Source: a virus (taxonomy: Duplodnaviria; Caudoviricetes). Taken from it: a DNA stretch of 32,388 bases. The stretch spans positions 1 through 32,388 of the IMG/VR virus record IMGVR_UViG_3300044820_000156; one strand, written 5' to 3'. Numbering within the stretch: the stretch's first letter is position 1; each line of letters begins with the position of its first letter. The position numbers were made by a program, and so were the translations under genes. This document shows positions 6,189-27,356 of the stretch, piece by piece. The notes under the pieces are model-generated. The model did not search any database, had not been told where the DNA came from, and saw only the letters and a program-made list of their open reading frames with translations.

Positions 6189-6869
6189 TCAGTTGATGAT
6201 CAGCCAGTCGACGACTGACGTATCTGCAGCGTTGGCGGTTCCGGCGGCGACCGAGGCTTGCAGGACCATGGTTCCTGCGCCGACGTTGCGCGAAGCAGAA
6301 GGAGCCTCGTACACGATGGTGCTCGTGACGGTGCCGCCCTGCGTTTTGCGCGAGACGATGATGATGCTGTTGGCCGTGAGAACGACGTTCGACACGATGA
6401 CCGAGCCAGCCGCAAGGATGGCCGATCCGCTCTGGCGCTGAGCGCCTCCGAGCATGAGAAGGACGAGCAATTGATCGCCGTCCGCTGCGGTCTGCGAGAT
6501 GCAGATGCCGAGGGCTGGCGTGTTGCCTTGCGCGAGGCGCACGCGTCCGAGCTTGGTGTTCGCGTTCGAGACTTCGACCCACTGGCCGTACGCGATCGCA
6601 CCGTCAGCAGTGCACACCGCACCACCGAGGACACGCACGCGTCCGCGACCACCAGCCTTGAGTGTGTCGAGCGTGACGCCGACTGCCATCGGCATTTGCG
6701 CCGGTGCAACGGTCGGGAGCACGACACCAGGCGGGTCTTGTGACGTGCCGGTGTTGGAGACGTCGATGAGGACGCCGAGGTTCGCCCCGATGTCCGAGCC
6801 GCCGTAGTTCTTGAACGCTACGTCTCCGCCCGGAACGGGAATCGACGTGATCTGGTTCTGGATGGCCAT
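6189..6869 (-). CDS. Capsid decoration/cement protein (DUF2190-like) with an extra C-terminal beta domain
   Basis: VGVT....AG....VRVLG.....ADGAIAYGQ.V......GR......ALGI....AADGD pattern; sits between scaffold and capsid genes. Confidence 0.7.
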   Translation of the reverse strand: MAIQNQITSIPVPGGDVAFKNYGGSDIGANLGVLIDVSNTGTSQDPPGVVLPTVAPAQMPMAVGVTLDTLKAGGRGRVRVLGGAVCTADGAIAYGQWVEVSNANTKLGRVRLAQGNTPALGICISQTAADGDQLLVLLMLGGAQRQSGSAILAAGSVIVSNVVLTANSIIIVSRKTQGGTVTSTIVYEAPSASRNVGAGTMVLQASVAAGTANAADTSVVDWLIIN

Positions 6870-8224: not shown

Positions 8225-8908
8225 TCACCAGTTCTGGACTGACCAGGCGATGACGTCGGTCGTGGTCCCTGTAAGTGCGAGCGTTCCAGTGCCTGCACCT
8301 GCAGTGAGCACGCACTTGACCGCTGCCGCAGCCGTCGTGTCCATGCCACCAGGCACCGAGAGCGTGGCGCTACGAACCCAAAGGTTCGAGACGGTCGCGG
8401 CGCCGGCGGAGAGTGCCTGAGTGCCGCTCTGCAAGCGAGGCCAGAACGCGAGCGCCGTCGTGGCGATCGTGATGGGCCCGTTCGCGAAGAGCTTCCAAGT
8501 CGAGCCACCCCATGCCGTGCCGATAGTGTCGACCGTGACGATCATGCCGCTCACGCCGATGGCGCCGTGCAGCATGTCGGCCGCGCGCTGGAGAATGAAT
8601 GGCGTAGTCGTCGAGCCGAGTTGGTTCACGACGTAGATGCCGTTGTCGGCACCTGCCGCACCAGCGACGAGCAACACGCGATCGCCCACTGCGAGAGTGA
8701 CGCCGTCTGGCGCGGCCAGCGCGCCGTTGGCGTTCGCAGTGATGAGGCCGACCGTCGGTTGGTTCGTCGGGTTCGTGTACGTGTACGCGCTCAGCGCGCT
8801 CGCGATCACGGCTCGGACTTGGTTGTCCTGTGGCAGGAAATCCGCCACCGCCAACGCGGGCGGGTAGTTCGGCATGTTCTGCTGATTGGGAGTCGCTGCG
8901 TTGGGCAT
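8225..8908 (-). CDS. Fibre-like virion protein
   Basis: Start MPNAATPNQQ (ATG 8908). Contains DGVTLAVGDRVLL...A.DNGIYVV......L.RAAD, a motif common in phage tail-fibre and head-fibre proteins. Confidence 0.7.
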   Translation of the reverse strand: MPNAATPNQQNMPNYPPALAVADFLPQDNQVRAVIASALSAYTYTNPTNQPTVGLITANANGALAAPDGVTLAVGDRVLLVAGAAGADNGIYVVNQLGSTTTPFILQRAADMLHGAIGVSGMIVTVDTIGTAWGGSTWKLFANGPITIATTALAFWPRLQSGTQALSAGAATVSNLWVRSATLSVPGGMDTTAAAAVKCVLTAGAGTGTLALTGTTTDVIAWSVQNW

Positions 8909-8915
8909 GGTTAGC

Positions 8916-10583
8916 TCACTTGGCGGACTGGTCCTTGCGGGCCGGTCGTTGGTTGGGTGTGGCCTTTGCGTCCTTGCGGTCGCGTGGCGGGTTCTTCGCG
9001 GGGTCGGACTTCTTTGGGTCCTTCGCGTCGGGATCGCTTCCGTCGCTCGACCCATCACCGCCGCTCATGTCGGGCACGGGCGCGGCTTTGTAGCGACTGG
9101 GGTAGTGCGCGGATGTCGCCGTCGGAGACAGCGGCACGAGGATGCGGGCCTGGTCTTTCGGTGTGACGACCGGATTGGGATTGTTGGGATTGAGTGGAGG
9201 CGGATCGTCGGGAGGCGCGAGCACCAGGCCGAGCTTCTCCGCGAGCACGTCGGCATCGACGGGCATGCCATTCGCCGCTGCCTTGGCCGCGAGGTCCATG
9301 ATGGTCGACGGATCGGGCTCAGCGTCGACGACGACGGTGATGGTGGGTCGCTTGTCGAAGTCGCTCGGGTAGTTGAGTCGAACGATCCAATCGACGATGT
9401 CTCGCTGGAAGGTGGACGCGAGCGCGAAGGCGTCGAAGCGCGCGAGCTGGTCGCTACCGCTCTTCGAGACAGCCGCGCGGGCCATCGAGCCGCCCTTGCC
9501 GCTCTCGGTCGTGTCGCTCTGTCCGAGGATCGCTTTGGCTTCCTCTCGATTGCAGAGGTCGATCCACTCTGAGTGCGTGATGTTGTGCGCGGACTTGACC
9601 TGATCGATGAGGATCTTGATGGAGTCAGGGATCGTCGCGCCTGCGAGAGAACCCGTCCCTAGAGCTCGGAGTGCGTTGTCCGCAGCAGAGATGTCGTTCT
9701 CATCGGCCGCGCGCGGAACGCCGTCGCTCTTGGTCGTGTAGGTCGCAGTGGCCCACGGTTTCGCGTAGCGCTCGACGAATTGGGCAGCGCCTCGAGCTCC
9801 CATGCCCTTGAGCGCCGACCACATTGCGATCTGACGACCGAGACCTTCGCGCACGGGATAATCCGCGCGGAGCTGCGGCGTGTGCGTGACGAACTTGCCG
9901 GGGTAGTCCTTGGCTCGAATGCCGAAGAGCGATTGGGAGGTCTTAGACGTCGCCCAGTTCTGGTCGTACGGGCCGACTTGGCCTTGGTCCCAGATGTGGA
10001 GTGCCCACGTCGCGGGGTCGGGGTAGTTGAGTCGGCGAGAGTGGATGAAGTGCAGCCGCGTGGGTGACCAACCATCGCTGTTGTCCCAGGCAGTCTCGCA
10101 AGCTCCGACGCCGTAATAGAGCCCTGAGAAGAGCAGTGTTGCGATCGACTGCTGCAAGTCGACGATGCGACGAAAGCGCGTGCGAACTTCATCGCAAATC
10201 TTCCGCGCTCGACGGTTGTCCTTGTCGCTCGGCGTGAACTCGATGCGGCAACCTGCGACTGTGAGCACACGTTGGTTGATCAGCGCAAAGGCTGTTGGGT
10301 CACGCTCGAGGATCTCGTTGAGCGCGTCGACGTACTCGCGGCGGTAGCCGGTGAGAGCGAGCCTGTAGACCGACGACAGGTACGTCAGCGAGAGGTTGCT
10401 GCCGACGATCGTCGGGTACTTGTCGATTAGCGGCCACGGCGCGAGAACAGCGCTCTCTTGCTTGGGCGCTTCGCCGTCGGCGAGCTTGTCTTTCGGCTGC
10501 GTCTCGCCTGGTCGCGGTCCCGGTTTGGGTGCGGGCGGACCCGAGTACTCCTTGATGCCGAGGAGGTTGTTGGGGTTTGCCAC
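8916..10583 (-). CDS. Portal protein, DUF935/Mu gp29-like
   Basis: GTG 10583 with GGGAG RBS. Motifs ILERDP...A....R...V, GLYYG....E..W, KFVTH, GLGR, FVERYAKP and CNREEAKAILGQ..TT. Follows TerL. Confidence 0.9.
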   Translation of the reverse strand: MANPNNLLGIKEYSGPPAPKPGPRPGETQPKDKLADGEAPKQESAVLAPWPLIDKYPTIVGSNLSLTYLSSVYRLALTGYRREYVDALNEILERDPTAFALINQRVLTVAGCRIEFTPSDKDNRRARKICDEVRTRFRRIVDLQQSIATLLFSGLYYGVGACETAWDNSDGWSPTRLHFIHSRRLNYPDPATWALHIWDQGQVGPYDQNWATSKTSQSLFGIRAKDYPGKFVTHTPQLRADYPVREGLGRQIAMWSALKGMGARGAAQFVERYAKPWATATYTTKSDGVPRAADENDISAADNALRALGTGSLAGATIPDSIKILIDQVKSAHNITHSEWIDLCNREEAKAILGQSDTTESGKGGSMARAAVSKSGSDQLARFDAFALASTFQRDIVDWIVRLNYPSDFDKRPTITVVVDAEPDPSTIMDLAAKAAANGMPVDADVLAEKLGLVLAPPDDPPPLNPNNPNPVVTPKDQARILVPLSPTATSAHYPSRYKAAPVPDMSGGDGSSDGSDPDAKDPKKSDPAKNPPRDRKDAKATPNQRPARKDQSAK

Positions 10584-10624: not shown

Positions 10625-12070
10625 TCATTCGAATCCCGTGCTCAGCGAATCGAGGTCGACGGTGCGTGGCGAACCAACGCGTTTTGCGCTGACTCCAGGT
10701 CGAAGGTCGGACTCGACCATCAGCTCGAGCAGTCCGTAGACCGTTGCGTCGAGTCGATCGGGGGACTTCATCTTCACACCAGGCTCCCAGCTGCATTGCT
10801 GGTCCTCGAGCTTCGCGAGCGTGCCGACGTGGTGCACGCGGCCTTGCTCGTAGAGCGACGCGACGGGCTCAGCGCGCAACTCTTTCCCGCGGTACGCGTG
10901 AATGCCTTTGAAGGAGATGTTGGGGTCGATGGACCGGATGGTTCGCTCGACCATCTCGCCGTTGAGATTCATCTCGGCGATCACGCGGTCTGCGCGGTAG
11001 TTTCGGTACGCGTCTACGACGATTCGACTCCACTCGCCGAGAGAGAATCGACCCGAGAGGTCGTCGAGCACATAGCCGTGGCCTTGGCGATCGATGCCGA
11101 CAACAATGATGCCGGTCTCGTCTGCTGTCTCCCGGGTGGAGAACGCGGGGTCGACTGCGACAACGACGCGCCAGATGCCGCGCGCTGCGATGAAGGCTTG
11201 GAGGAACTGCTTCTTGAGTTCCTCTTTGGTCGGGATGATGCGCAGCGCATCGATCTGCGACCGCTTGAACAGTGCTCCCGGCGCGTCGTCGAGGACGTCG
11301 CCGTCGAGCTCTTGTCGCCCGAGTCGGGTGCCGCCGTAGATCCGCTGGAGATCCTCGATGTACGTTGGTGCGAGGTTCGCTGCGTTGTCGAGTGTGCGGC
11401 CGCGCGTGATGAAGCTGCGCGGATCCGAGAGGAGTTCTTTGATTTCGACGGTGGGCCGCGGCGTTGTCGTGATGATTGTCCGCGGGACCAGCTTGCTCTG
11501 GACCGAGCGCATGACGAAGCGGACCTGCGCGAGCGCCGAACCGTGCTCGACTCCCTTGCCTGCGAACTTCCACGACGCGAGCTCGTCGAGCCAGGCCGTG
11601 TCGATGTTGTTGCCGCGGATGCTGTTGGGGACGTCTGCGCTGAAGGTTGTTGCTGTCGCTCCGGAGGGCCACGTGATGCGGCTCTTGCCCGGCTCGTAGA
11701 TGGGTTTGTTCCAGGGAGGGGAGATCGCGAGGATCCCGCTCTCGCCCTCGATCATGACGTCGCGAACTTCTTTCGCTGTCCGACCGACGATGATGATGCG
11801 ACGTGCTCCGAGCTGCACGCGATGGCGGAGCCACTCCGCGCCCGCTCGAGTCTTGCCGAACCCGCGACCCGCGAGAATCGTCCAAGTCGTCCAGCTTCCG
11901 ATCGGTTCGAGCTGCTCTGCGCGTGCCCAGAACGGCCACACGAACGCGAGCGCGCACCGTTCGATCGGAGTGAGCTTACGAAGGGTTGCTGCTCTTTCCG
12001 AGTCGGGCAGCGATGCCAGCCAAGTCGCTAGAGAGCCTTCGCTCGGCTTCGGCGAGAGCGCTGGCGTCAT
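10625..12070 (-). CDS. terL: Terminase large subunit
   Basis: WPFWARAEQL, ILAGRGFGKTRAGAEW (Walker A), AWLDELASW (Walker B), TTTP, LGRQELDG, VVAVDPA...DETGI and SPDRLDA (nuclease). Confidence 0.95.
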   Translation of the reverse strand: MTPALSPKPSEGSLATWLASLPDSERAATLRKLTPIERCALAFVWPFWARAEQLEPIGSWTTWTILAGRGFGKTRAGAEWLRHRVQLGARRIIIVGRTAKEVRDVMIEGESGILAISPPWNKPIYEPGKSRITWPSGATATTFSADVPNSIRGNNIDTAWLDELASWKFAGKGVEHGSALAQVRFVMRSVQSKLVPRTIITTTPRPTVEIKELLSDPRSFITRGRTLDNAANLAPTYIEDLQRIYGGTRLGRQELDGDVLDDAPGALFKRSQIDALRIIPTKEELKKQFLQAFIAARGIWRVVVAVDPAFSTRETADETGIIVVGIDRQGHGYVLDDLSGRFSLGEWSRIVVDAYRNYRADRVIAEMNLNGEMVERTIRSIDPNISFKGIHAYRGKELRAEPVASLYEQGRVHHVGTLAKLEDQQCSWEPGVKMKSPDRLDATVYGLLELMVESDLRPGVSAKRVGSPRTVDLDSLSTGFE

Positions 12071-12479
12071 CTGGCTCGTCCACTCCCGCTGCCTTCAGCT
12101 TGGCTTCGGTCGCCTTGATCGCGGCAGCGGCGACCTTGGGATACGCCTCCGCAGCACTGAGGTCCTTGAGCGCGCCGTCGTCACCGAGTGCGGCGTTCCG
12201 CACGGCGATCGCGACCTTCATCGCGTCGATGGCGATGTTGTCGAGTCGGCGAACGTCCGCGGTGACGGTCTTGGAGAGCTCCTCGCGCGCGACACCTCGC
12301 GAGACCTCAGCCCGTTCCGCTCGTCGTTCGCTCAGCCACCGTGCCACTGCGACGTGACCGATTTGGAGGCCGTGCTTCGTGGTGAGGGCCGCTGCGATTT
12401 CTCGCGTGCTCTTGCCCTCTCCCGCCAATTGGATGATGTCCGCTTCGTGCGGCTCGCGGATTTTGCCGGGTCGGGCCAT
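11976..12479 (-). CDS. terS: Terminase small subunit
   Basis: N-terminal HTH (GEGKSTREIAAAL...GHVAVARWL) plus helical body, immediately upstream of and overlapping terL. Confidence 0.7.
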   Translation of the reverse strand: MARPGKIREPHEADIIQLAGEGKSTREIAAALTTKHGLQIGHVAVARWLSERRAERAEVSRGVAREELSKTVTADVRRLDNIAIDAMKVAIAVRNAALGDDGALKDLSAAEAYPKVAAAAIKATEAKLKAAGVDEPDDASALAEAERRLSSDLAGIAARLGKSSNPS

Positions 12480-12557
12480 CTGTTCCGTCCAATCGGACCA
12501 CGTATCGAAACGCGTTCTGCTCCCGCGATCGTCGCTGGGCGCCCCTAGAAGATATGG

Positions 12558-12956
12558 CTAACCGTGTCCTGATGTGACTCGTGTTGTCCCGTTTCGTACT
12601 TCGCTTCGGAGGTCTCGCACGTTCGCGGCGACCGCAAGAACTTGCCGTCGCGTCTCTTTCGTTGCGACCTCGCAATTTTCCACGCGTGTCGCGAGTGATT
12701 CCACCTCGGCGCGTTCCACGTAGCGGACCGAGAAGAGCCCCGGATGTGCCGCGCGAAGGCGCTCGCGGTTGATGAGCACTCGACGCAGCTTCACCGTCGG
12801 TCCGGGCACACGTGTGTACCAATCGCCCCCCATGGCCGCGTGGAGACGAAACAGCAGGCGCGCGACCGTGCGCTTGGGTCGACCGAACTCCATGGCAAGC
12901 TCGGCGATGGTGCTCATGTGTGCCGCTCTCGGGATTCTCCCTCTGGGTTTCGTCAT
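12558..12956 (-). CDS. HTH/coiled-coil DNA-binding protein, candidate late regulator
   Basis: STIAELAMEFGRPKRTVARLL HTH-like segment and C-terminal heptads. Last gene before terS. Confidence 0.5.
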   Translation of the reverse strand: MTKPRGRIPRAAHMSTIAELAMEFGRPKRTVARLLFRLHAAMGGDWYTRVPGPTVKLRRVLINRERLRAAHPGLFSVRYVERAEVESLATRVENCEVATKETRRQVLAVAANVRDLRSEVRNGTTRVTSGHG

Positions 12957-13552
12957 GACCGACCTCTGAGGTATGCGTAAAGCTCCTCTCGACGTACGCG
13001 TGCCGCTTCTCGTGCAACCTGCTCTCGCGTCTGTCGAAGCGCCTCGTACTCAGCGAGGCTGCGTGTCCACGCGTCTGCGGCCTCGTCGCGCACGTTGACT
13101 AGACGCGCCGCGCTCTTGGCAGTCTTGGCGAAGTTGTCGAGCATCTCTATCAGACGGGCTGAACTAGGCTCTTCGTTGTCGCTGACGTAGCGCACGAAGA
13201 GCTCGCGTGCGGCCGGCATGTTCACGGCGACCGCGACGAGGCATCGCTCACGCCGGCGGAGCGAGAACACGCTCCGGAGCTGTGGCGTCCACACGTTCGA
13301 CGACGCGAACGCGGCCTCGGTGACCGCGAACGCCCATGGAGGGAGCTTCGCGACCGTCGGTGTGACGACCTGCTCGAGGGAGAGCTCTTCGCGGTAGCGC
13401 AGCGTGCGCTTGGCGAGGTGGAGACCATCAATGCGGGCTTCGTCCCACACGCCTCCGCCCGAGGAGTCGTATTTCTGCGCTCCCATTCCGAGCGCGCTCG
13501 CACGTCGCCCGAAGAACCAGCCGAGCTCCGCTTCTGCCTTGTCGCAGTCCAT
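12953..13552 (-). CDS. Hypothetical protein (late-activator/antiterminator position)
   Basis: 199 aa with GGAGAAGG RBS and ATGA coupling to the next gene. Function inferred only from position. Confidence 0.55.
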   Translation of the reverse strand: MDCDKAEAELGWFFGRRASALGMGAQKYDSSGGGVWDEARIDGLHLAKRTLRYREELSLEQVVTPTVAKLPPWAFAVTEAAFASSNVWTPQLRSVFSLRRRERCLVAVAVNMPAARELFVRYVSDNEEPSSARLIEMLDNFAKTAKSAARLVNVRDEAADAWTRSLAEYEALRQTREQVAREAARVRREELYAYLRGRS

Positions 13553-13589
13553 GTGCCTTCTCCTGGAACGGGACCAGCCCGTTCTGATC

Positions 13590-13850
13590 TCAGACGCGTT
13601 CGACGATTTGGATGCCGTGTGCGGTGCCGACTTGAACGCCGCGGACGAAGATGGGGAACTTGCCGATCATGCCAGGCTGCGTCTTGCGCGCCTTCATGAT
13701 CGTGTCCGCAGTCGCGCGGCGACGTTTGACGTTGTGACGGATGCGTTGGTGCATCCGCAGGCCGTAGAGCGTCGAGTAGCGCTTTCGGTTGAAGTGAGCG
13801 CAGAGGAAGCACTCGTGCAGGCCAGTCCAATCGGAGGTGTGGTGGCTCAT
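13590..13850 (-). CDS. Small basic C2H2 zinc-finger protein
   Basis: HECFLCAHFNRKRYSTLYGLRMHQRIRH; start coupled by ATGA overlap. Confidence 0.6.
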   Translation of the reverse strand: MSHHTSDWTGLHECFLCAHFNRKRYSTLYGLRMHQRIRHNVKRRRATADTIMKARKTQPGMIGKFPIFVRGVQVGTAHGIQIVERV

Positions 13851-14050
13851 GCTTCGACCTTTGTGATCACGTGATCGAACGCCTTGTTCCCTGCACGCAG
13901 GTCTCCATTTGCCACACGGCTAACATCGACAGCTGCGTCGCACTTCGGACACACGAGCATTCCTCGCGGTCCGCGCGACTCTTTCCACTCCATCTCCGTG
14001 CGAGCGTGCACGTAGTACTTCGGTCCACTACAAATGAGGACGCTGTTCAC
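13847..14050 (-). CDS. Small Cys/His protein
   Basis: GTG 14050 overlaps the upstream TGA. Reads MNSVLICSGPKYYVH...VCPKC. Confidence 0.5.
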   Translation of the reverse strand: MNSVLICSGPKYYVHARTEMEWKESRGPRGMLVCPKCDAAVDVSRVANGDLRAGNKAFDHVITKVEA

Positions 14051-14574
14051 GGCTTTCGCTCCCAGCCCATGACTTCGGCCGCGTCGCACTCGACCTTGTG
14101 TGGAGTCGTCGCTTTGTCCTCGTCCTTGACGTTCACGTCTCCGATGCCCAACGCGCCGCACCACGGGCAGACGTGGCCGTAGCCGTCGGCGTACGGCCAC
14201 TCCGCGTCCGCGATGATCTCTCGCTGCTTCGTACTCGCCGCTTCTGCCAACTCCGCACGCACGCGCAGGTCGTTGATCGATTGGTGTGCTTCGGCGAGCT
14301 CCGCTTGCAGCGCGGAGACCATGTCGTTGGACAGCTTGAGGGCTTGCTCGATGTCGTTGGGCATGGGTCCGATGTTAGGTGATCCGAAGTCTTCGGGCTC
14401 GTAGACACCGGTCAGCCAGTTCAGACGGCGTTGGCGCACTTCGAATCGCTTCGTCTTGCGGTCGTATGTCGTCTCGAAAACGGTGTTCGCGCCATCGCGA
14501 CCAGGGAACTCCTCGCAGAGTTGCTTCAGCCGCTCGCCGAGAGCCCGCATTATGACTTCGGGCTCGACGCTCAC
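14047..14574 (-). CDS. Hypothetical coiled-coil protein with C-terminal CPWC...H...C site
   Basis: 175 aa with coupled start and stop overlaps. Confidence 0.55.
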   Translation of the reverse strand: MSVEPEVIMRALGERLKQLCEEFPGRDGANTVFETTYDRKTKRFEVRQRRLNWLTGVYEPEDFGSPNIGPMPNDIEQALKLSNDMVSALQAELAEAHQSINDLRVRAELAEAASTKQREIIADAEWPYADGYGHVCPWCGALGIGDVNVKDEDKATTPHKVECDAAEVMGWERKP

Positions 14575-14777
14575 GGCTTCGACTTCTTCACGAGGTCACC
14601 GAGACACAGCTTCTCCGCGAGCCCATCGATGCACTTCTTCTGCAGCTCGACGGCCTCTTGGAGCAGGCGTCCTTGTCGACTGAGCGCTCCGACAAGCTCG
14701 ATGCTCACTGGTGGACAGACGTGCTGGTACTGCGAGTTCAACGCGCCGTCGCACTTGGGGCAGTGGCTGGCGTTCAT
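14571..14777 (-). CDS. Small CPKC protein
   Basis: 68 aa with coupled overlaps at both ends. Confidence 0.5.
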   Translation of the reverse strand: MNASHCPKCDGALNSQYQHVCPPVSIELVGALSRQGRLLQEAVELQKKCIDGLAEKLCLGDLVKKSKP

Positions 14778-14971
14778 TTGTGTCCGCCGAATTCTCTAGC
14801 GGCCGCCATTCCAGGATTGGTGTGTTCTAGTTGCGCTGCTCCTTTGTTCCATCTCGCAAGTCCAGCTTGAATCAGTTCATCGCCAGTGGAGCCGACTCTG
14901 GGTGAGGTGAGTTGTCCCTTTCTTGGGAGCACGACGAGTAGATCCCTGGCGGCAGTTGACACTTCGATCAT
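14774..14971 (-). CDS. Small hypothetical protein
   Basis: ATG 14971 overlaps the ATPase stop (ATGA). Reads MIEVSTAARDLL..., 65 aa. Confidence 0.45.
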   Translation of the reverse strand: MIEVSTAARDLLVVLPRKGQLTSPRVGSTGDELIQAGLARWNKGAAQLEHTNPGMAAAREFGGHK

Positions 14972-16452
14972 TTGGCTCGCTCGACTTTCTCCACGCCTTC
15001 GAGCGTGGCAACCCACTCTCGCAGCACGTCTACGTGGTCCATCTTCCGCTGCTCTTCGTACGTCTCGACGATCGCCGCGTGCATGTCGCCGTTCGCGAGT
15101 TGTCCGACCGGCAACCCATCGAGGATGAGAGTGCCCTTCTGCGACTTGGTCGCTGCGATCGAACGTCGAATCGCTTTCTGCGTCGCGCGCTGGACGATGC
15201 CGACGATCATCGCTCCGCTCACGACCGCGTCGAGCGACAACCGGTGACGATTCCCGTCCTTGGTCGTCGCCAAGAACAGCGGATACTTCGCCGGCAAGAA
15301 GAGTTCTTCTGCGGCCTCGGTCGCGAGCTCGTCCATCGCCGTCTTGCCACCGCGACCCTTGAGCGCGCGATAGAAGATGGCCTCGGCCTCAAGCTCGTTC
15401 GGTTGCTTCACGTGCACGCGTGCGTCGATGCGACCGTCTCGGATTACTGCAGGGTCGAGCGTGTCAGGTCGATTCGTTGCCAAGATCACGAACGCTCCGC
15501 TCTCGAACATCCCGTCCATCTCCGCGAGGAACTGCGGCACGAGCGTCCGCTCCATACCCTCCCAACGCGTCTCGCCACGCTTGCCGAGTAGAGCGTCTGC
15601 CTCGTCGATGAAGATGATCGCTGGATAGCCCGTTCTGGCCTTGTACTCACGGGCTTGCGCGAAGAGCGACCGCACCGCTGCCTCGCTCTCGCCGACGAAC
15701 TTATTGAGCACGTCAGGTCCCTTGCAGTAGATGAATCCGCCCGCGCGTGCCGACGCTCCGTGGATGAGCGCAAGAGCGGTCGCAGCCGCCTTGCCGAGCA
15801 TCGTCTTGCCGTTACCGGGCGGTCCATGGAGCAGCACGCCCTTCGGCGCTCGCTGCCCGAACTTCTCGTAGAGTTCTTTGTGCGTGTGCGGATGTTCGAT
15901 CGCTTCGATGAGCGCGCGCTTCGCCTCTTCGAGACCTCCGATGTCGTCCCAGCAGACGCCGGTCTCCTCGACGACCGTGCGCGACGTGTCGCCGCTGCCG
16001 AGGTTCTTCACGATCGCGTTGCCAGTGAAGTCGAGCACCACGCGGTCGCCTGGCTTCGGCGCAGGTGCACGATACGCGACCACCTTGGTCGATCCAGGCA
16101 CCTCGATCTCCGCAGTTGCGTCGTCGACGATCTGCTTGACGACTACGACCGAACCCACGGCAATCGGCGGATCGAGGATGCCGACGATCTGCTTCGAGTT
16201 CCCATGCAGACGCACGGTCTGTCCGCGCTCGACGGTGTGGTGAGTCGGTTTGCGCAGCTCCGCGACCTGCGAGCCCGTGTGCACCACGACGTTCTTCTCC
16301 GTGATACCGATCACCACGGCGAAGAGCGCGGGGGTGTCGTTCATCTCCTCGACGCGCGCCTTGAGAAAGCGTACCTCGGCCTCGAGCTGCTGCTCGCGCG
16401 TGCCGTGGAACGCTGGGAAGCCCCAGCTCGGTCCTGTCGTGGTGCTGTTCAC
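14968..16452 (-). CDS. Proteasome-type AAA+ ATPase, ARC/Mpa-like
   Basis: Short N-terminal coiled coil and two OB-like segments (VERGQTVRL, PKPGDRVVLD). AAA motifs: WDDIGGLEE, GVLLHGPPGNGKT, KGPDVLNKFVGESE, IIFIDEAD, TLVPQFLAEMDG, ATNRPDTLDPAVIRDGRID, SGAMIVGIVQRA. Confidence 0.85.
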   Translation of the reverse strand: MNSTTTGPSWGFPAFHGTREQQLEAEVRFLKARVEEMNDTPALFAVVIGITEKNVVVHTGSQVAELRKPTHHTVERGQTVRLHGNSKQIVGILDPPIAVGSVVVVKQIVDDATAEIEVPGSTKVVAYRAPAPKPGDRVVLDFTGNAIVKNLGSGDTSRTVVEETGVCWDDIGGLEEAKRALIEAIEHPHTHKELYEKFGQRAPKGVLLHGPPGNGKTMLGKAAATALALIHGASARAGGFIYCKGPDVLNKFVGESEAAVRSLFAQAREYKARTGYPAIIFIDEADALLGKRGETRWEGMERTLVPQFLAEMDGMFESGAFVILATNRPDTLDPAVIRDGRIDARVHVKQPNELEAEAIFYRALKGRGGKTAMDELATEAAEELFLPAKYPLFLATTKDGNRHRLSLDAVVSGAMIVGIVQRATQKAIRRSIAATKSQKGTLILDGLPVGQLANGDMHAAIVETYEEQRKMDHVDVLREWVATLEGVEKVERAK

Positions 16453-16655
16453 TTGGCGATCCTCGCGCGCACGGCAGCGTCCTTGCTCTCGAGCAGCTTG
16501 CGCAGCGCGACCGTTCGCTCGGCGTTGCGTGGCAGTGTCTGCACCACGTGCTGCGCGAGCTCGGCGTAGACCTTCGACACGCTCTGCAAGTGGTCGGGCA
16601 GGTGCTCGAACGTGAAGAATTGCAAGATGGGCTCGGGTTGTGCGACGTCGTTCAT
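16449..16655 (-). CDS. Conserved small phage helical-hairpin protein (possible Acb2/Tad1-like hairpin)
   Basis: ILQFF.FEHLP.HLQ.VSK...ELA...V..LP.NAERTVALRKLLESKDAAVRA, a family I recognise as widespread in phages. Strong AGGAGG RBS. Confidence 0.7.
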   Translation of the reverse strand: MNDVAQPEPILQFFTFEHLPDHLQSVSKVYAELAQHVVQTLPRNAERTVALRKLLESKDAAVRARIAK

Positions 16656-16664
16656 GGTGTCCTC

Positions 16665-16889
16665 CTAGTTGGCAGTCTTGTTGGTCTCTTGGCGCCGTGA
16701 TGCTCCGTGACGACGAGCGCGCATGGTGCCGAGGTGGTCGATGATTCCCATCAACGCGACACCCACGACGTTCGGCACCACGCGCGACACGACCACCCAG
16801 CCGTTCATCGCGATCGTCGCGTGATACGTGCCGTCGTCGAGCGCTGCAAAGGTCGCTTGCACCGCTGAGATGTCGAGTGCGGACTTCAT
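16665..16889 (-). CDS. Small hypothetical protein
   Basis: ATG 16889 overlaps the rusA stop. Reads MKSALDISAVQATF..., 74 aa. Confidence 0.5.
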   Translation of the reverse strand: MKSALDISAVQATFAALDDGTYHATIAMNGWVVVSRVVPNVVGVALMGIIDHLGTMRARRHGASRRQETNKTAN

Positions 16890-17311
16890 CGTTGCCTTCC
16901 CTTCGCTGGTCCCTTGACCTTCGCGGCGTCGATCACGCCTTCGAGCTTCCGAACCCAAACGATCGCGTGCGGGTTGTCGCGATCGAGCTCCATCTCGACG
17001 TGCGCTTTCAGCAGCTGGCGATCGTCGTGCCACACGCGTTTGCACTTGGTGATCCCGTCCTCGATGCCCTTGAGGAAGTTGCTCGCGTCTCCACGGAGCG
17101 CAGCGCGAAACACGTGGACCTCGATCGCGAGCGGGGTGTTCTTGTCGGGCACCGTCCAACCCTGCTTCGCTGCTGCTGCGAGAGCGCACCAGCCGACGCG
17201 CTGCATGTAGTGGTCGGAGTCGGTCGGCGTGTAGTGATGGCCTGCTCCCGAACGCGCTCGGGCAAGCGGAACGGGAACGCCGGGGACCTCGAAGCGGAGT
17301 TCGTTGGTCAT
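16886..17311 (-). CDS. rusA: RusA-family Holliday junction resolvase
   Basis: FEVPGVPVP.ARAR, YTP, GDASNFLKGIEDGI and VWHDDRQL catalytic motifs. Confidence 0.85.
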   Translation of the reverse strand: MTNELRFEVPGVPVPLARARSGAGHHYTPTDSDHYMQRVGWCALAAAAKQGWTVPDKNTPLAIEVHVFRAALRGDASNFLKGIEDGITKCKRVWHDDRQLLKAHVEMELDRDNPHAIVWVRKLEGVIDAAKVKGPAKGRQR

Positions 17312-17901
17312 GCGAGTTGCCCTTCCTTTCGGATCGCCTCGGTGCATCGATGTCGAAGGTGCGCAACCGCCGAGCGCGTGTTCTCGACCTTCCCCTCAAG
17401 CACGTCGATGGCGTCGAGAGCGATCTGTCGCCACTCGCCGTGTGCTTTGTACGAGTAGTCGCTGCGCAATCCAAACTCTTTGAGCGCTGCTCCGACTGAT
17501 GGCTTTGCGCTCTCGCAGAACCGGGTGAACTCGGCTTTGGGAATCTTGGCGAGCTTCTCGGCGTCGCGCGCTCGTCGAGGCGGAATGCCCGCTTCTGTGA
17601 GTCGTTCGTTCTTTGACTTCACTGTGGCAACGTGCCGACCGTCGAGCTTTGGAAGCTTGGCGCTGATCTGTCCGATCCGCCGCTCCGCTTGCAGCGAGAT
17701 GACCTTCGCGTCGCGTGCGAGCTTCTCTCCACCCGCGCGCATGCGCACCCATCGCGAGAACGCTTCCGCCTGTGACTGCACCTCCTGAATCACCATGAGG
17801 TTCCGCGTTTCGGAGAGCTTCGTCGCCAAGCTCGACAACGTGTTGAGCGATTCGATCGCGGGTGCGTCGTGCACGACGAGCATGCCAGGCCGCGCGATCA
17901 C
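17308..17901 (-). CDS. Helical DNA-binding-like protein resembling the N-terminal module of phage methyltransferases
   Basis: EV...AEA...W.R.........A..I.L.AERRIG......PK...L.E.GI....A...EKLA.IP..EF pattern. No catalytic domain follows. Confidence 0.5.
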   Translation of the reverse strand: MIARPGMLVVHDAPAIESLNTLSSLATKLSETRNLMVIQEVQSQAEAFSRWVRMRAGGEKLARDAKVISLQAERRIGQISAKLPKLDGRHVATVKSKNERLTEAGIPPRRARDAEKLAKIPKAEFTRFCESAKPSVGAALKEFGLRSDYSYKAHGEWRQIALDAIDVLEGKVENTRSAVAHLRHRCTEAIRKEGQLA

Positions 17902-19256
17902 GAGTCGCCTCCGTCTTCGAACTCGCCATCAGTGAGGTTGTCGAACCGAATGCACGACGCGTCGAACCTGCACTTCACGACGCCCGTCGGACCGTTGCGC
18001 TGCTTGCCGATGAGCAGTTCCGCGATGCCAGGCTCGTCGCTTTTGTCCTTGGTGTAGTAGTCGTCGCGATAGATGAAAATGATGTTGTCCGCGTCTTGCT
18101 CGATTGCGCCGCTCTCGCGCAGGTCGGCGAGCATCGGGCGCTTGTTGGTGCGCGTCTCAACGGCGCGGTTCAACTGCGAGAGCGCAATCACGGGACACGA
18201 GAGTTCCTTCGCCAGGCTCTTGAGCGCACGGGAGATCGCCGAGACCTCCTGCTCGCGATTGTCGCCGGGTCCGCTCGCGAGTTGGATGTAGTCGACCACG
18301 ACGAGGCGGAGCTGCTTGCCGATCTTCACGAGCTCACGCTGCACACGTCGCGCCTTCGCTCGCATCATCTGCACGGTCTGTCCGGCCTCGTCGTCGAGCC
18401 AAAAGGGCAGTCCACCAACGGTCGTCACCGACCCTAGAAACGATTCGAACGACTTTGGACCGAGGTTACCGCCGCGCACCGCGGACATCGCCACGCGTGC
18501 CTCCGACGCTGCGACGCGCATCGCGATCGACTTGCGCGGCATCTCGAGCGAGAACAGCAGGCCTCCGCCGCCATTGTGGGCGACGGTCACGAGTGCGGTG
18601 CAAGCGAGCGCGGTCTTTCCCATTCCGGGGCGTGCCGCGAGGATGGTGAGATCGCCGTCGTGAAGTCCGGTGAGTACGCGATCGAGCCGGTCAATGCCCG
18701 TGCGTTCGCCAGTGATTCCACCGGTTGTCTTGCTCGCTCGCAGTGCCTCTTCGAACGCGTCCTTGAGAGCGCCCTTCACGTGCTGCAACGTGTCGCGGTT
18801 CTGGCCGTCTGCGAGGTTTGCCATCGCTGCGGCATGCTCGTCGATGAGCTCGAGGCCCGCGCCGCAGTACGCCTCCGCGATCGCGCGTTGGGTCTGCGCG
18901 ATGAACTCTCGCATGCGTGCGTGGCGCTTCACCGTCTTCGCGTAGACCGGAGCTCGCGTTGGTGCGGGTGCGGCGTCGAGGATCTCCGCGAGGTAGCTCA
19001 TGCCGCCGACCTGCGCGAGGCGTTCGGAGATCTTCAACGAACCCCCAACCGTCACCATGTCGCACGGGTCGTTTTTCTCGTGCAGCGCAACGACGGCCTC
19101 GAAGATTCGTCGGTGCGACTCCGAGAAAAAGTCCTGAGGGCGCAAGATGCCGATGACCTCGTCGACGACGTCGCGGCCGTTCGAGAGCATGACTGCGGAC
19201 AGCACCGCAGCCTCGGCGTCGAGATCCATCGGCGGAACTTTGTGGTCGATGTTCAC
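17898..19256 (-). CDS. dnaB: Replicative DNA helicase
   Basis: VPP.DLDAEAAVL, ILAARPGMGKT, FSLEM, VVVDYIQL, NREQEVSAISRALK.LAKEL, LSQLNR, DLRESGAIEQDAD, KQRNGPTG. Confidence 0.97.
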   Translation of the reverse strand: MNIDHKVPPMDLDAEAAVLSAVMLSNGRDVVDEVIGILRPQDFFSESHRRIFEAVVALHEKNDPCDMVTVGGSLKISERLAQVGGMSYLAEILDAAPAPTRAPVYAKTVKRHARMREFIAQTQRAIAEAYCGAGLELIDEHAAAMANLADGQNRDTLQHVKGALKDAFEEALRASKTTGGITGERTGIDRLDRVLTGLHDGDLTILAARPGMGKTALACTALVTVAHNGGGGLLFSLEMPRKSIAMRVAASEARVAMSAVRGGNLGPKSFESFLGSVTTVGGLPFWLDDEAGQTVQMMRAKARRVQRELVKIGKQLRLVVVDYIQLASGPGDNREQEVSAISRALKSLAKELSCPVIALSQLNRAVETRTNKRPMLADLRESGAIEQDADNIIFIYRDDYYTKDKSDEPGIAELLIGKQRNGPTGVVKCRFDASCIRFDNLTDGEFEDGGDS

Positions 19257-20029
19257 GCGGTCCTCTTCGGCGCTTTGAGGGGCTGATAGTTCGGTTGTGG
19301 CTCGGCTTTCGGCGGACTGCCGCTCGCTCGGCCGCGCTCACGGGCTTGGATCTTCTTCGCGTCGACGAGCCACTTCTTCCAAGCCTCGAACCAATCGACG
19401 GCCATGTGTCCGTGTGCGAGGTGATGGGCTTTGAACTTGGCGAATTCGTCGGGTATTTCCGTGATCGGGATCATCTCTGCGTACGCTGACCACTCAGGGT
19501 CCAACACGAGGCGGGGGTCGAGGAAGTCCGGTGCCCGCCCCTCGCGCGCGCGAAGAGCTCCCGAAGGGAGATCTCTCTTATCTTCTCTTCTCTGATCTAG
19601 CCGCGTGACATCTTCCGGCGTTACGCGTGACTCGCCGGGACCGTTACGCGTAACGGTCTCGTGACTTACATCGACGTTCGGTTTCTGACGTGCGCGGTGT
19701 TCGCGCATGCGGCGAGCGGCGGTTTCGTCCACCGAGTTCCACTTGTCCCACGCTGTCACGACGAGACGTCGAGCCCCAGGCTCACCCTCGAAGCACACCA
19801 TGGAGAACGCTTCGCTCGCGAGGTCCTGCAGCGCAGTCGCGACCTCTTTGCGATTGCCACCAAGGATGTCGTGCACCGCGTCGACGTCCTCGAGGCCTCG
19901 CGCGAGCTCGATCACTCCACGACCGGGACGCGCCTCGTGCGCGAGCTCGAGGTAGACAAACCTCGACGCTCGCGAGAGACCGCGCTTGCTGCCCTTGCGC
20001 AGCTCGCCGTGGAACTTGATCCAACTCAC
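19253..20029 (-). CDS. Phage replication initiator (lambda O-like architecture)
   Basis: GTG 20029 overlaps the upstream stop. MSWIKFH N-terminus, A.RMREHRAR linker, C-terminal EFAKFKAHH....DW..AWKKW domain. Directly upstream of dnaB. Confidence 0.75.
   Translation of the reverse strand: MSWIKFHGELRKGSKRGLSRASRFVYLELAHEARPGRGVIELARGLEDVDAVHDILGGNRKEVATALQDLASEAFSMVCFEGEPGARRLVVTAWDKWNSVDETAARRMREHRARQKPNVDVSHETVTRNGPGESRVTPEDVTRLDQRREDKRDLPSGALRAREGRAPDFLDPRLVLDPEWSAYAEMIPITEIPDEFAKFKAHHLAHGHMAVDWFEAWKKWLVDAKKIQARERGRASGSPPKAEPQPNYQPLKAPKRTA
19568..19670. other. Candidate replication origin inside the initiator gene
   Basis: Perfect 20-bp palindrome GACCGTTACGCGTAACGGTC (19639-19658). Related CGCGTGAC / CGTTACGCGTGAC / CGTGAC copies at 19602, 19619 and 19660. 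Adjacent strand-asymmetric AT-richer tract ATCTCTCTTATCTTCTCTTCTCTGATCTAG (19571-19600). Confidence 0.6.
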
Positions 20030-26025: not shown

Positions 26026-26062
26026 ACAATGGCTTTTATTTGGAACCGTGTCAATTAGAACG
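26026..26062 (-). promoter_or_regulatory. Leftward early promoter/operator for cro (probably leaderless)
   Basis: Minus strand TTGACA (26054-26049), 17-nt spacer, CATTGT (26031-26026), then ATG 7 nt later with no RBS. Confidence 0.7.
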
Positions 26063-26083
26063 TGTGGCACTGCACTTTCCGCA

Positions 26084-26689
26084 ATGAAGGCGATGGATTC
26101 CTATCAGGGCATGACGATCGAGCGGCGTGGCCGTGTCGGCATGACGGCTGAAGAAAAGTCGGCGCGTGCGCTGCGCTTCAAGAGCCTGCGTGTCGCGTTG
26201 TTTCCGACGCAGCAGGCCTTTGTGGATGCTGCGGGAGAGGTGGAGATCGAGCGCTCCTACCTCTCGAAATTCGAGAACGGCGACAATCTCATCACGACTG
26301 GTGACATGCAGGACCGAGTCGCGAAGGTCTTCAAGATCTCCTCGTCGACGCTGCGTGCGTACCTCGATGGCGACCTGCCGATGACCGAGGTGCTCGCCGA
26401 ACGGCACCGCGTTCCAACGAGTGCTCCGGACGATTCACACTTGCCCGCTGCTCTCGTGAACGCGATCGAGCACCATCCACTCAAACGACACGAACGCTTT
26501 CGCGGCGCAGTCGCGGCGGTCTCCGTCCTCCGAAACGAAGCCGGACTCGATAGGTTCACCGAGCAGGCATGGGCGGAGTTGATCGAGAAGACGATTCGAG
26601 CGCTTGAATATGGGGAGTTCCAATCGACGCGCACAAGTCAAGACGACTTGGAGAAGAGACCGCGAGGAATTCCAAAGCGTCCACGTTGA
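26084..26689 (+). CDS. XRE/HTH prophage repressor (ImmR/CI-like, no S24 domain); start uncertain (26084-26141)
   Basis: RFKSLR....TQQAFVDA....IERSYLSKFENG HTH; divergent from cro and upstream of an ImmA-like gene. Confidence 0.8.
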   Translation: MKAMDSYQGMTIERRGRVGMTAEEKSARALRFKSLRVALFPTQQAFVDAAGEVEIERSYLSKFENGDNLITTGDMQDRVAKVFKISSSTLRAYLDGDLPMTEVLAERHRVPTSAPDDSHLPAALVNAIEHHPLKRHERFRGAVAAVSVLRNEAGLDRFTEQAWAELIEKTIRALEYGEFQSTRTSQDDLEKRPRGIPKRPR

Positions 26690-26720
26690 CGCTGCTCGGC
26701 GATGGAGCTTCCATTGCGTG

Positions 26721-27356
26721 ATGGAGGGTGCGGCGCTCGAGGGATTGGCGGAAGCGCTGTATCGCGAGGCCGGTTTCGAACCCGACGAGCCCGAGTCCCC
26801 GGTCGCGATCGCGCGGAAGGTGATCGGCGCTGATGCAGTGGAGATCGTACCGCCAGGTGCACTTCGCTTCACGCCCGCGCAGCTCGCTCTCGTGAATGGT
26901 CGCTGGCGCATCTTCGTGCGTCGTTCCGAGCCGCAAGCGCTGACGTTCTCGGTCGCGCACGAGCTCGCGCACTGGGCACTTCGACGCGAGGGCTACCAGG
27001 GGCAAGACGAAGAGCGGCTCGCGGACTACCTCGGCGCGTGCCTCATCGCACCAGCAGCGGCGTTCGCGCGTGCGGTGAAAGCCGTCGGTGACGACATGGC
27101 GGAGCTCTCGGAGATCTTCGGCACGACGCAGTCGCTCGTGGCGCTGCGTTGGGGCGAGCGAACGTCGACGCCGCTTGCGCTCGTGCGGCCTGGTCTCGTG
27201 CGCGTCCGCAGCCAGCTCGAGTTTGTGTGGCCTGATGAGCGAACGATCCGACGGTGGGCGCATGGCACTCCACCGAAGGGCCTCGCAAAGACGAAGCTCA
27301 CCGATGACCCGCGGCGCGTGCTGTTGATGGCCGACGAGCTCGCCGAACTCGGCTAG
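26721..27356 (+). CDS. ImmA/IrrE-family metallopeptidase (anti-repressor)
   Basis: FSVAHELAHW (HExxH), EERLADYLGACLIAP and a C-terminal HTH-like ELSEIFGTTQS. Confidence 0.88.
   Translation: MEGAALEGLAEALYREAGFEPDEPESPVAIARKVIGADAVEIVPPGALRFTPAQLALVNGRWRIFVRRSEPQALTFSVAHELAHWALRREGYQGQDEERLADYLGACLIAPAAAFARAVKAVGDDMAELSEIFGTTQSLVALRWGERTSTPLALVRPGLVRVRSQLEFVWPDERTIRRWAHGTPPKGLAKTKLTDDPRRVLLMADELAELG

Follow-up and report, generated by a model that had tools for sequence, protein, structure and literature searches.

Genome context of the ATPase gene

The window analyzed here is the whole stretch of 32,388 nucleotides, a 32-kb linear virus contig from a peat metagenome with an estimated CheckV completeness of approximately 32%. 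Its phage genes include those for a terminase, a Mu-like portal protein, a protease, a capsid protein, DnaB, and RusA. An AAA ATPase gene (Table 1) sits among small open reading frames (ORFs), with dnaB and rusA on its upstream side and the terminase genes on its downstream side, all on the same strand; by analogy with the layout of the lambda nin region, it may be a delayed-early accessory gene. The reading frame begins with a GTG codon preceded by GAGG, contains no internal stops, and overlaps its neighbors at both ends (i.e., GTGA at the stop of the upstream gene and ATGA at the downstream ATG). Its GC3 is on par with that of dnaB, terL, and the portal gene (~0.8 in real genes of this contig), and a re-assembly, possibly from the same sample, shows no differences across positions 12000 to 19579. 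A scan for promoters and terminators returned signals at or below chance.

Table 1. Features of the ATPase locus (positions in the window; residues are those of the ATPase)
Feature	Position	Strand	Basis
RusA resolvase, unknown gene, and DnaB helicase, upstream of the ATPase	16886..19256	-	Domain/phrog searches
Coupled upstream 68-aa helical-hairpin gene	16449..16655	-	phrog_1761/5120; common in phages, not conserved as a partner
ARC-sister-clade AAA ATPase, intact, 494 aa	14968..16452	-	HMM, AlphaFold, Foldseek, tree; GC3 0.80
N-terminal helix, predicted coil, residues 19-39, three heptads	16336..16398	-	AlphaFold; aligned against true ARC
First OB-like beta barrel, residues 42-93	16174..16329	-	AlphaFold strands; Mpa match by Foldseek; family profile meets 5kwa from position 40
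Second OB-like beta barrel, residues 102-153	15994..16149	-	AlphaFold, Foldseek
Walker A GPPGNGKT, residue 210	15802..15825	-	Motif scan, clade alignment
Pore loop 1 KFVG	15691..15702	-	Motif scan; comparison with Mpa (PMC8755798, available part)
Walker B IFIDE	15601..15615	-	Motif scan, clade alignment
Sensor 1 Asn327 through arginine fingers Arg338/Arg341	15430..15474	-	Invariant in 206/206 clade sequences
Beta-hairpin 391-406, aligned with the ARC beta-grasp hairpin (putative assignment)	15235..15282	-	AlphaFold, alignment, PMC8755798 (available part)
C-terminal helices (454-482) and last strand (487-492)	14971..15093	-	AlphaFold, alignment with ARC
65-codon ORF in the microprotein slot of relatives, without Cys motif; may not be a gene	14774..14971	-	GC3 0.47, GC 0.54
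Coil plus CxxC zinc-finger ORF	14047..14574	-	Weak, nonreproducible similarity to the microprotein profile
Terminase large and probable small subunits, start of late region	10625..12479	-	Domain/phrog searches

As the preliminary description had reported, the window carries no Pup ligase or proteasome gene: searches of the record (32% complete) for PF03136 and PF00227 found neither. PADLOC assigned only generic AAA matches to the ATPase (IetA and TRIP13, at most 72 bits) and none to its neighbors. A reading of the coupled upstream gene as an Acb2/Tad1-like antidefense sponge was considered and dropped, as Pfam, PDB-sequence, Foldseek, and VIA comparisons lent it no support and returned only generic helical hairpins.

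Domain architecture and predicted fold

An AlphaFold model based on a 50-sequence alignment (mean pLDDT, 90.6; pTM, 0.79) consists of an N-terminal helix, two all-beta units, the AAA core, a hairpin, and C-terminal helices followed by a last strand, as delimited in Table 1. The coil predicted from sequence spans residues 18 to 41, the modeled helix has 21 residues, and both are shorter than the long coil with which true ARC binds the 30-residue Pup helix. Foldseek searches of the PDB placed Mpa structures in all of the top positions (E value, 4e-33; TM score, 0.60 to 0.69 over ~490 columns), with 26S Rpt subunits trailing (E value, 4e-23). Pfam OB models did not match the ATPase sequence; the two barrels are predicted from the model and its structural matches. 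The motifs on which the preliminary description relied were all recovered, i.e., KGPDVLNKFVGESE at residue 244, IFIDEAD (Walker B) at 280, TLVPQFLAEMDG at 303, ATNRPD at 325, IRDGRID at 337, and SGAMIVGIVQRATQKAIRR at 412. The motifs, the model, and the Foldseek matches together bear out its proposal of a short coil, two OB domains, and a single AAA module with intact Walker A and B motifs, pore loop, and arginine finger. The pore loop, of the Ar-Hb-Gly type, is intact, and that of Mpa (K340 to G343) has the same K-F-V-G sequence, according to the available part of a published study (PMC8755798).

Alignment and secondary structure suggest that the hairpin, the C-terminal helices, and the final strand correspond to the beta-grasp domain of Mpa; the Mpa hairpin lies in the region that touches the 20S ring, as described in the same portion of that study (PMC8755798). 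The window ATPase stops 4 residues past the last strand, whereas true ARC runs approximately 20 to 24 residues further to a GQYL terminus. The ending VEKVERAK (residue 487 to the end), without a GQYL/HbYX tail, was confirmed. No frame beyond the stop codon yields a GQYL-like ending, which rules out restoration of the tail by frameshift or read-through, and the distance from the conserved His to the C-terminus is 21 residues, compared with a median of 25 in relatives. Since no such downstream frame exists, relatives end similarly, and the re-assembly is identical, the C-terminus is not an artifact.

Phylogenetic placement beside cellular ARC

Mpa/ARC is known for feeding proteins to the bacterial proteasome, and the preliminary description had classified the window ATPase as a member of this type. 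The best NCBIfam model was TIGR03689, with a score of 279 bits that lies below the cutoff (504.75) and far from that of a true ARC control (732 bits). Models for PAN (188 bits), Cdc48 (188 bits), and FtsH (145 bits) scored lower; the window ATPase shares the classic AAA module with these families (and with 26S Rpt) but falls below their cutoffs and lacks their domain layouts, i.e., a single OB domain, two rings, or a protease domain. A single-sequence search of the PDB listed two-ring Cdc48/VAT proteins on top, because their two domains add up, with Mpa (5kwa) in 60th place yet with the longest coverage. With the 50-sequence family profile, Mpa was matched in a single stretch at ~300 bits, beginning at position 40 for 5kwa. 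Identity to true ARC is only ~28%.

In a 60-row tree, ARC and a set of phage-rich proteins including the window ATPase (here referred to as the orphan clade) grouped together with support of 100/100, PAN, Cdc48, and FtsH falling outside; within this group, support was 99/97 for cellular ARC and 96/90 for the orphan clade. A quick tree of 146 rows, which omitted three intein-like or split rows, had the same topology, and both trees recovered the window ATPase as monophyletic with tail-less phage homologs. The GQYL-ending references in the tree came from the candidate host phylum (see below), with no actinobacterial sequence included. On these sequence comparisons, the window ATPase belongs not to ARC itself but to a distinct, phage-rich sister group of cellular ARC. 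The earlier classification therefore stands in part: the architecture is that of ARC/Mpa, OB folds are predicted, and the protein branches inside the ARC-containing group, closer to ARC than to PAN, Cdc48, or FtsH, but it does so in the sister clade and below the ARC family cutoff. The 100/100 group also included one unplaced ARC-like ATPase (L083:4971-6596), from a MAG contig labeled Nanoarchaeota, which branched separately from cellular ARC and from the orphan clade.

Mpa/ARC (TIGR03689; PDB 5KWA, 5KZF, 7PX9-7PXD, and 7LJF) is thus the best HMM, profile, and fold match of the window ATPase as well as its sister in the tree, and the two have in common a coil, a double OB, a single AAA module, a putative beta-grasp-type C-terminus, and the KFVG pore loop. 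They differ in that the window ATPase has a coil of three heptads instead of a long one, has no GQYL extension, is phage borne, and belongs to a clade whose carriers are devoid of pup, pafA, dop, and prcBA (0/78 carrier records).

A phage-borne clade with invariant catalytic residues

At least 119 homologs of the window ATPase were found at 40 to 52% identity, almost all of them metagenomic, and at least 47 (43 to 52% identity) have the same short coil and tail-less end. Clade ATPases are carried by approximately 90 viral loci and two cultured Brevundimonas phages; these carriers are diverse, ranging from 15-kb fragments to 530-kb genomes. No gene of the clade was found in the 251 phylum genomes and 301 order genomes searched (see below), and a single-protein viral scan gave no match. 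Genome and metagenome scans, which covered 1/64 parts and were swamped by Cdc48 and FtsH, recovered one orphan locus, in the metagenomes. We found no study of this clade in the main texts of the open-access literature.

The Walker A Lys, the Walker B Asp-Glu, the pore Gly, the sensor Asn, and both arginines are invariant in all 206 clade sequences. This invariance, together with codon use like that of core genes, argues that the motor has been kept active. By comparison, the GQYL tail is missing from 205 of the 206 sequences (a penultimate aromatic residue occurs in 1/206), whereas each of the 23 cellular ARC ORFs that could be recovered (25 loci fetched) has a penultimate Tyr. The sole member ending in GQYL is P0098. 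GQYL is likewise missing from three verrucomicrobial ARCs whose genomes encode Pup ligases, so that tail loss alone is not diagnostic. These ARCs of the UBact system (NF033388 neighbor; L084, L085, and L087) differ from the orphan clade in falling within cellular ARC (99/97), in scoring 422 bits on TIGR03689, and in coming from genomes with two Pup-ligase-family genes. Pup ligase and proteasome subunit genes were each found in 0 of 78 carrier virus records (from the set of 86 loci; 40 records at least 90% complete), with controls scoring as expected, and the phage ATPases indeed stand alone with respect to these two partners, as had been proposed. Four members (P0034, P0040, L046, and L058) are long or split, and P0034 and P0040 contain homing-endonuclease or intein Pfam domains within the ATPase.

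The cultured Brevundimonas phages Polewnik and Strzyga encode a "proteasome-associated ATPase" (USN16546.1) that belongs to the same clade, is tail-less, and lies amid small early genes. It differs from the window ATPase in showing no match to the coil and OB part and in having a GCGDPxCxxC motif at its N-terminus instead. The available part of the paper on these genomes (PMC10070969) makes no mention of this ATPase.

A microprotein and a DUF1360 protein accompany many clade members

Clustering of neighboring genes revealed one conserved gene, always downstream of the ATPase, for a hydrophobic protein of ~120 aa with a CP[YW]CxS[HF]W motif (i.e., a DUF1360 membrane protein). Between the two genes lies that of a charged microprotein of 60 to 100 aa that opens with a K/Q/G-rich stretch, continues with a helix-like PxxDxxLxxL segment, and ends in CxC. 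Of 86 nonredundant loci, 43 have neither gene and 34 have both; in the other 9 the microprotein occurs without DUF1360, and DUF1360 never occurs without the microprotein. The microprotein is found within 1.1 kb of the ATPase in 43/86 loci, sometimes past an intervening gene, at a threshold of 11 bits that was set after inspection and with 24 to 26 of the counted proteins having trained the profiles; several loci end less than 1 kb from the ATPase, and short CPxC ORFs behind L003, L020, L029, and L037 were left out of this count. At least two copies occur in 10/86 loci, which suggests adaptor diversification; tandem microprotein-like genes behind one ATPase were seen in L011, L019, L024, L025, L027, L034, L045, L243, and L274. 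In L002, L065, L067, L071, L072, L076, and L079, the microprotein is of a variant type in which an internal GCGCG precedes a short acidic domain, and DUF1360 accompanies it each time.

Single microprotein sequences matched neither Pup nor UBact families and end in a Cys motif instead of G[EQ]. At the profile level, three Pup chains ranked 9th, 10th, and 13th among 177,635 PDB sequences, with weak E values of 0.5 to 1.3, and a verified UBact ranked first among 1,372 ORFs from cellular loci (E value, 0.014). A sub-clade of ATPases lacks the coil and OB barrels, and 16 of its 25 members have a Cys motif at their own N-terminus, mostly GCGDPxCxxC; two such ATPases score against the microprotein profile. 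The N-terminal motif (GCGDPxCxxC or ICWCG[DN]PxC in L001:5599-7020 and 15 other OB-less loci, e.g., L049, L062, and L073) is like the Cys end of the microprotein and is also present in the cultured Brevundimonas phage ATPase. From this resemblance, an adaptor-motor gene fusion appears likely.

The preliminary description had envisaged an adaptor among the small ORFs coupled to the window ATPase. Six-frame profile searches of the window detected neither DUF1360 nor a convincing microprotein, and the slot behind the ATPase is ~200 bp long and atypical in composition. None of the five ORFs that follow the ATPase (14971 to 13590) gave a tblastn match in related loci, and the upstream 68-aa gene matches one contig only, ~5 kb from its ATPase. 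A coupled adaptor is therefore unsupported, since the family partners are absent and the flanking ORFs are not conserved partners. Flanking genes shared with related loci are limited to dnaB and the 12953-13552 gene in L044 and to the terminase in L289 and L051. No client gene is shared across related neighborhoods, and neighbors are not conserved among cassette-less loci; in this comparison, the nearest loci are ~1.3 substitutions per site away, and the closest homologs (P0002 to P0043, 44 to 52% identity) were not among them.

The cassette is present in the earliest-branching orphan lineages, which points to its loss in the lineage of the window. Eighteen of 49 full-length loci are cassette-less, and the records behind L010, L017, L031, L033, L039, L058, and L290 (92 to 100% complete) have no microprotein match genome-wide; the occurrence of full-length cassette-less copies in near-complete genomes indicates that this state is real in the family. 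We had considered the short coil as a marker of adaptor loss, but the idea was dropped: members with the cassette and members without it do not differ in coil length (medians of 28 versus 30; P = 0.40), and the short coil is thus no evidence of lost adaptor binding.

The window ATPase might still depend on a Pup-like adaptor, encoded either in the missing part of the genome or by ORF 14047-14574, and the frequency of the microprotein in related loci speaks for such dependence, as does the possibility that two thirds of the genome, and an adaptor with them, are missing from this contig. With profile A2, ORF 14047-14574 scores 15.1 bits, within the range of held-out true microproteins (11 to 28 bits), a value of 15 bits being reached by one unrelated ORF among 17,464 and no reversed sequence reaching 10 bits. 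With profile A6, however, it scores 4.9 bits (rank 141), and the alignment, from which the threader is missing, requires two long insertions. The ORF is about twice as long as the usual microprotein, has no homologs (Atlas matches were subthreshold), and resembles generic coil/zinc-finger phage proteins; it was dropped as an adaptor candidate. Microprotein matches in 49 whole records lie beside the ATPase or within its N-terminus, which counts against a distant adaptor gene, and we regard adaptor dependence of the window copy as unlikely overall.

Loss of both partner genes could also have left the ATPase as an orphaned remnant of a three-gene cassette, hitchhiking in an accessory region with little use to the phage. 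The atypical composition of the slot and the lack of conserved neighbors among cassette-less loci are consistent with this. The ATPase itself shows no decay, however, its frame, motifs, and codon bias being intact, and the many homologs with the same short coil and tail-less end, as well as the recurrence of cassette-less full-length loci, make a useless remnant highly improbable.

Candidate host and search for proteasome genes

Among 121 genomes of one phylum, the best matches of the window DnaB were 49 to 52% identical; this phylum is that of a Kofleriaceae genome (Myxococcota), and the host assignment is weak, since a single phylum was compared. True, GQYL-ending ARC was found in 45/251 genomes of the candidate phylum (L328 to L352), which lies outside Actinobacteria. 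In the order with the best DnaB matches, ARC was found in 0/301 genomes (at most 10 candidates scored per genome) and the 20S alpha subunit in 0/81. A lone Pup-ligase-like gene was present in 3/121 genomes of this order; these are single long Pup-ligase-family genes (L359 to L361). They fit the proteasome-free deltaproteobacterial Pup ligases described in the available part of an earlier report (PMC2588565).

These counts bear on two ways in which the window ATPase could act on host proteolysis. The first, raised in the preliminary description, is dominant-negative poisoning of a host Pup/UBact proteasome; the phage subunit could mix into host ARC rings or serve as a decoy for pupylated proteins. 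An Mpa-like N-domain, the missing tail, and the presence of true ARC in part of the candidate phylum would suit such a role. Against it, the order of the best DnaB matches yielded no ARC or 20S alpha and few Pup-ligase-like genes, identity to true ARC is only ~28%, invariant catalytic residues would be superfluous for a poison, and family members occur in Brevundimonas phages. As searches of the probable host order, itself weakly assigned, revealed no proteasome, we consider this reading the most improbable of those examined here.

The second is that the ATPase feeds a host protease core (HslV, ClpP, or 20S) through its beta-grasp face without an HbYX tail, redirecting proteolysis. The hairpin and beta-grasp region, which contacts the 20S ring in Mpa (PMC8755798, available part), appears to be retained, and one clade member keeps the GQYL end. 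There is also a precedent for tail-less docking, in that Cpa binds 20S without GQYL, as stated in the accessible portion of PMC8223512; together with the GQYL-less verrucomicrobial ARCs, this means that a missing GQYL is no proof of a missing protease partner. However, the carriers are very different phages, protease genes occur in 0/78 of their records, and the absence of 20S alpha from the 81 genomes of the candidate order counts against coupling to a host protease. We judge it rather improbable.

Proposed mode of action

The evidence tips modestly toward the window ATPase being an active, proteasome-independent unfoldase that acts without the adaptor of its family, a prediction made from sequence and modeled structure. 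During lytic development, the protein would be expressed from the operon that follows dnaB and rusA and would assemble as a ring-shaped hexamer. Three short coiled coils may catch a helix or loose end of a client, which the KFVG loop would thread, so that a complex is dismantled and the client is released rather than fed to a protease. Such disassembly would be analogous to the action of ARC in proteasome-less Corynebacterium: according to the available part of a review, ARC of Corynebacterium glutamicum unfolds pupylated ferritin without a proteasome (PMC8223512). Both would be ARC-type motors disassembling a complex without a 20S core, but the C. glutamicum protein, in that same portion, is a true ARC needing Pup, PafA, and Dop, whereas the phage clade has no ligase and the window copy has no nearby tag gene.

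The ancestral cassette would have supplied a ligase-free Pup-like adaptor, with a disordered N-terminal threader, a docking helix, and a C-terminal CxC that could hold cargo via a disulfide or a metal, along with the DUF1360 CxxC membrane protein. The lineage of the window would have lost both from the locus and likely picks its clients directly; host complexes, or the replication and recombination complexes of the phage itself, are candidates.

More tentatively, it is possible, although doubtful, that phages carry a third kind of Pup-like system composed of an ARC-derived unfoldase, a ligase-free Cys-gripping microprotein, and a CxxC membrane protein, with the module existing in three states: with a free adaptor, with the Cys motif fused to the motor and replacing the OB barrels at its N-terminus, and without an adaptor, the state seen in the window. 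If so, it would provide phages with a tool to dismantle chosen host complexes, possibly defense complexes, without proteolysis. A deep phage-borne sister clade that has kept its catalytic residues and shed tail, ligase, and proteasome would show that the ARC motor has, in viruses, a second career, one free of the proteasome. A Cys-tipped Pup-like adaptor that is free in some members, fused in others, and lost in yet others would bear on the origin of Pup tagging and suggest a targeting route without conjugation enzymes. With its partner genes absent, the window copy itself is in the state that reveals the least; the question is testable, because cultured Brevundimonas phages carry a clade member.

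Other features of the window and of related contigs

A very close homolog of the ATPase (P0003) and a close homolog of DnaB (P0140) are both on ENA contigs 10,317 bases long; the two may be a single contig, which hints at conserved linkage to dnaB. Elsewhere in the window, a helix-turn-helix gene followed by an IrrE/ImmA-type metallopeptidase gene (26048-27356, plus strand) is a possible repressor and antirepressor pair that would point to a temperate phage. Two head-region genes on the minus strand (6189-6869 and 8225-9058) have weak matches to K1-lyase C-terminal and head-decoration/tail-fiber proteins.
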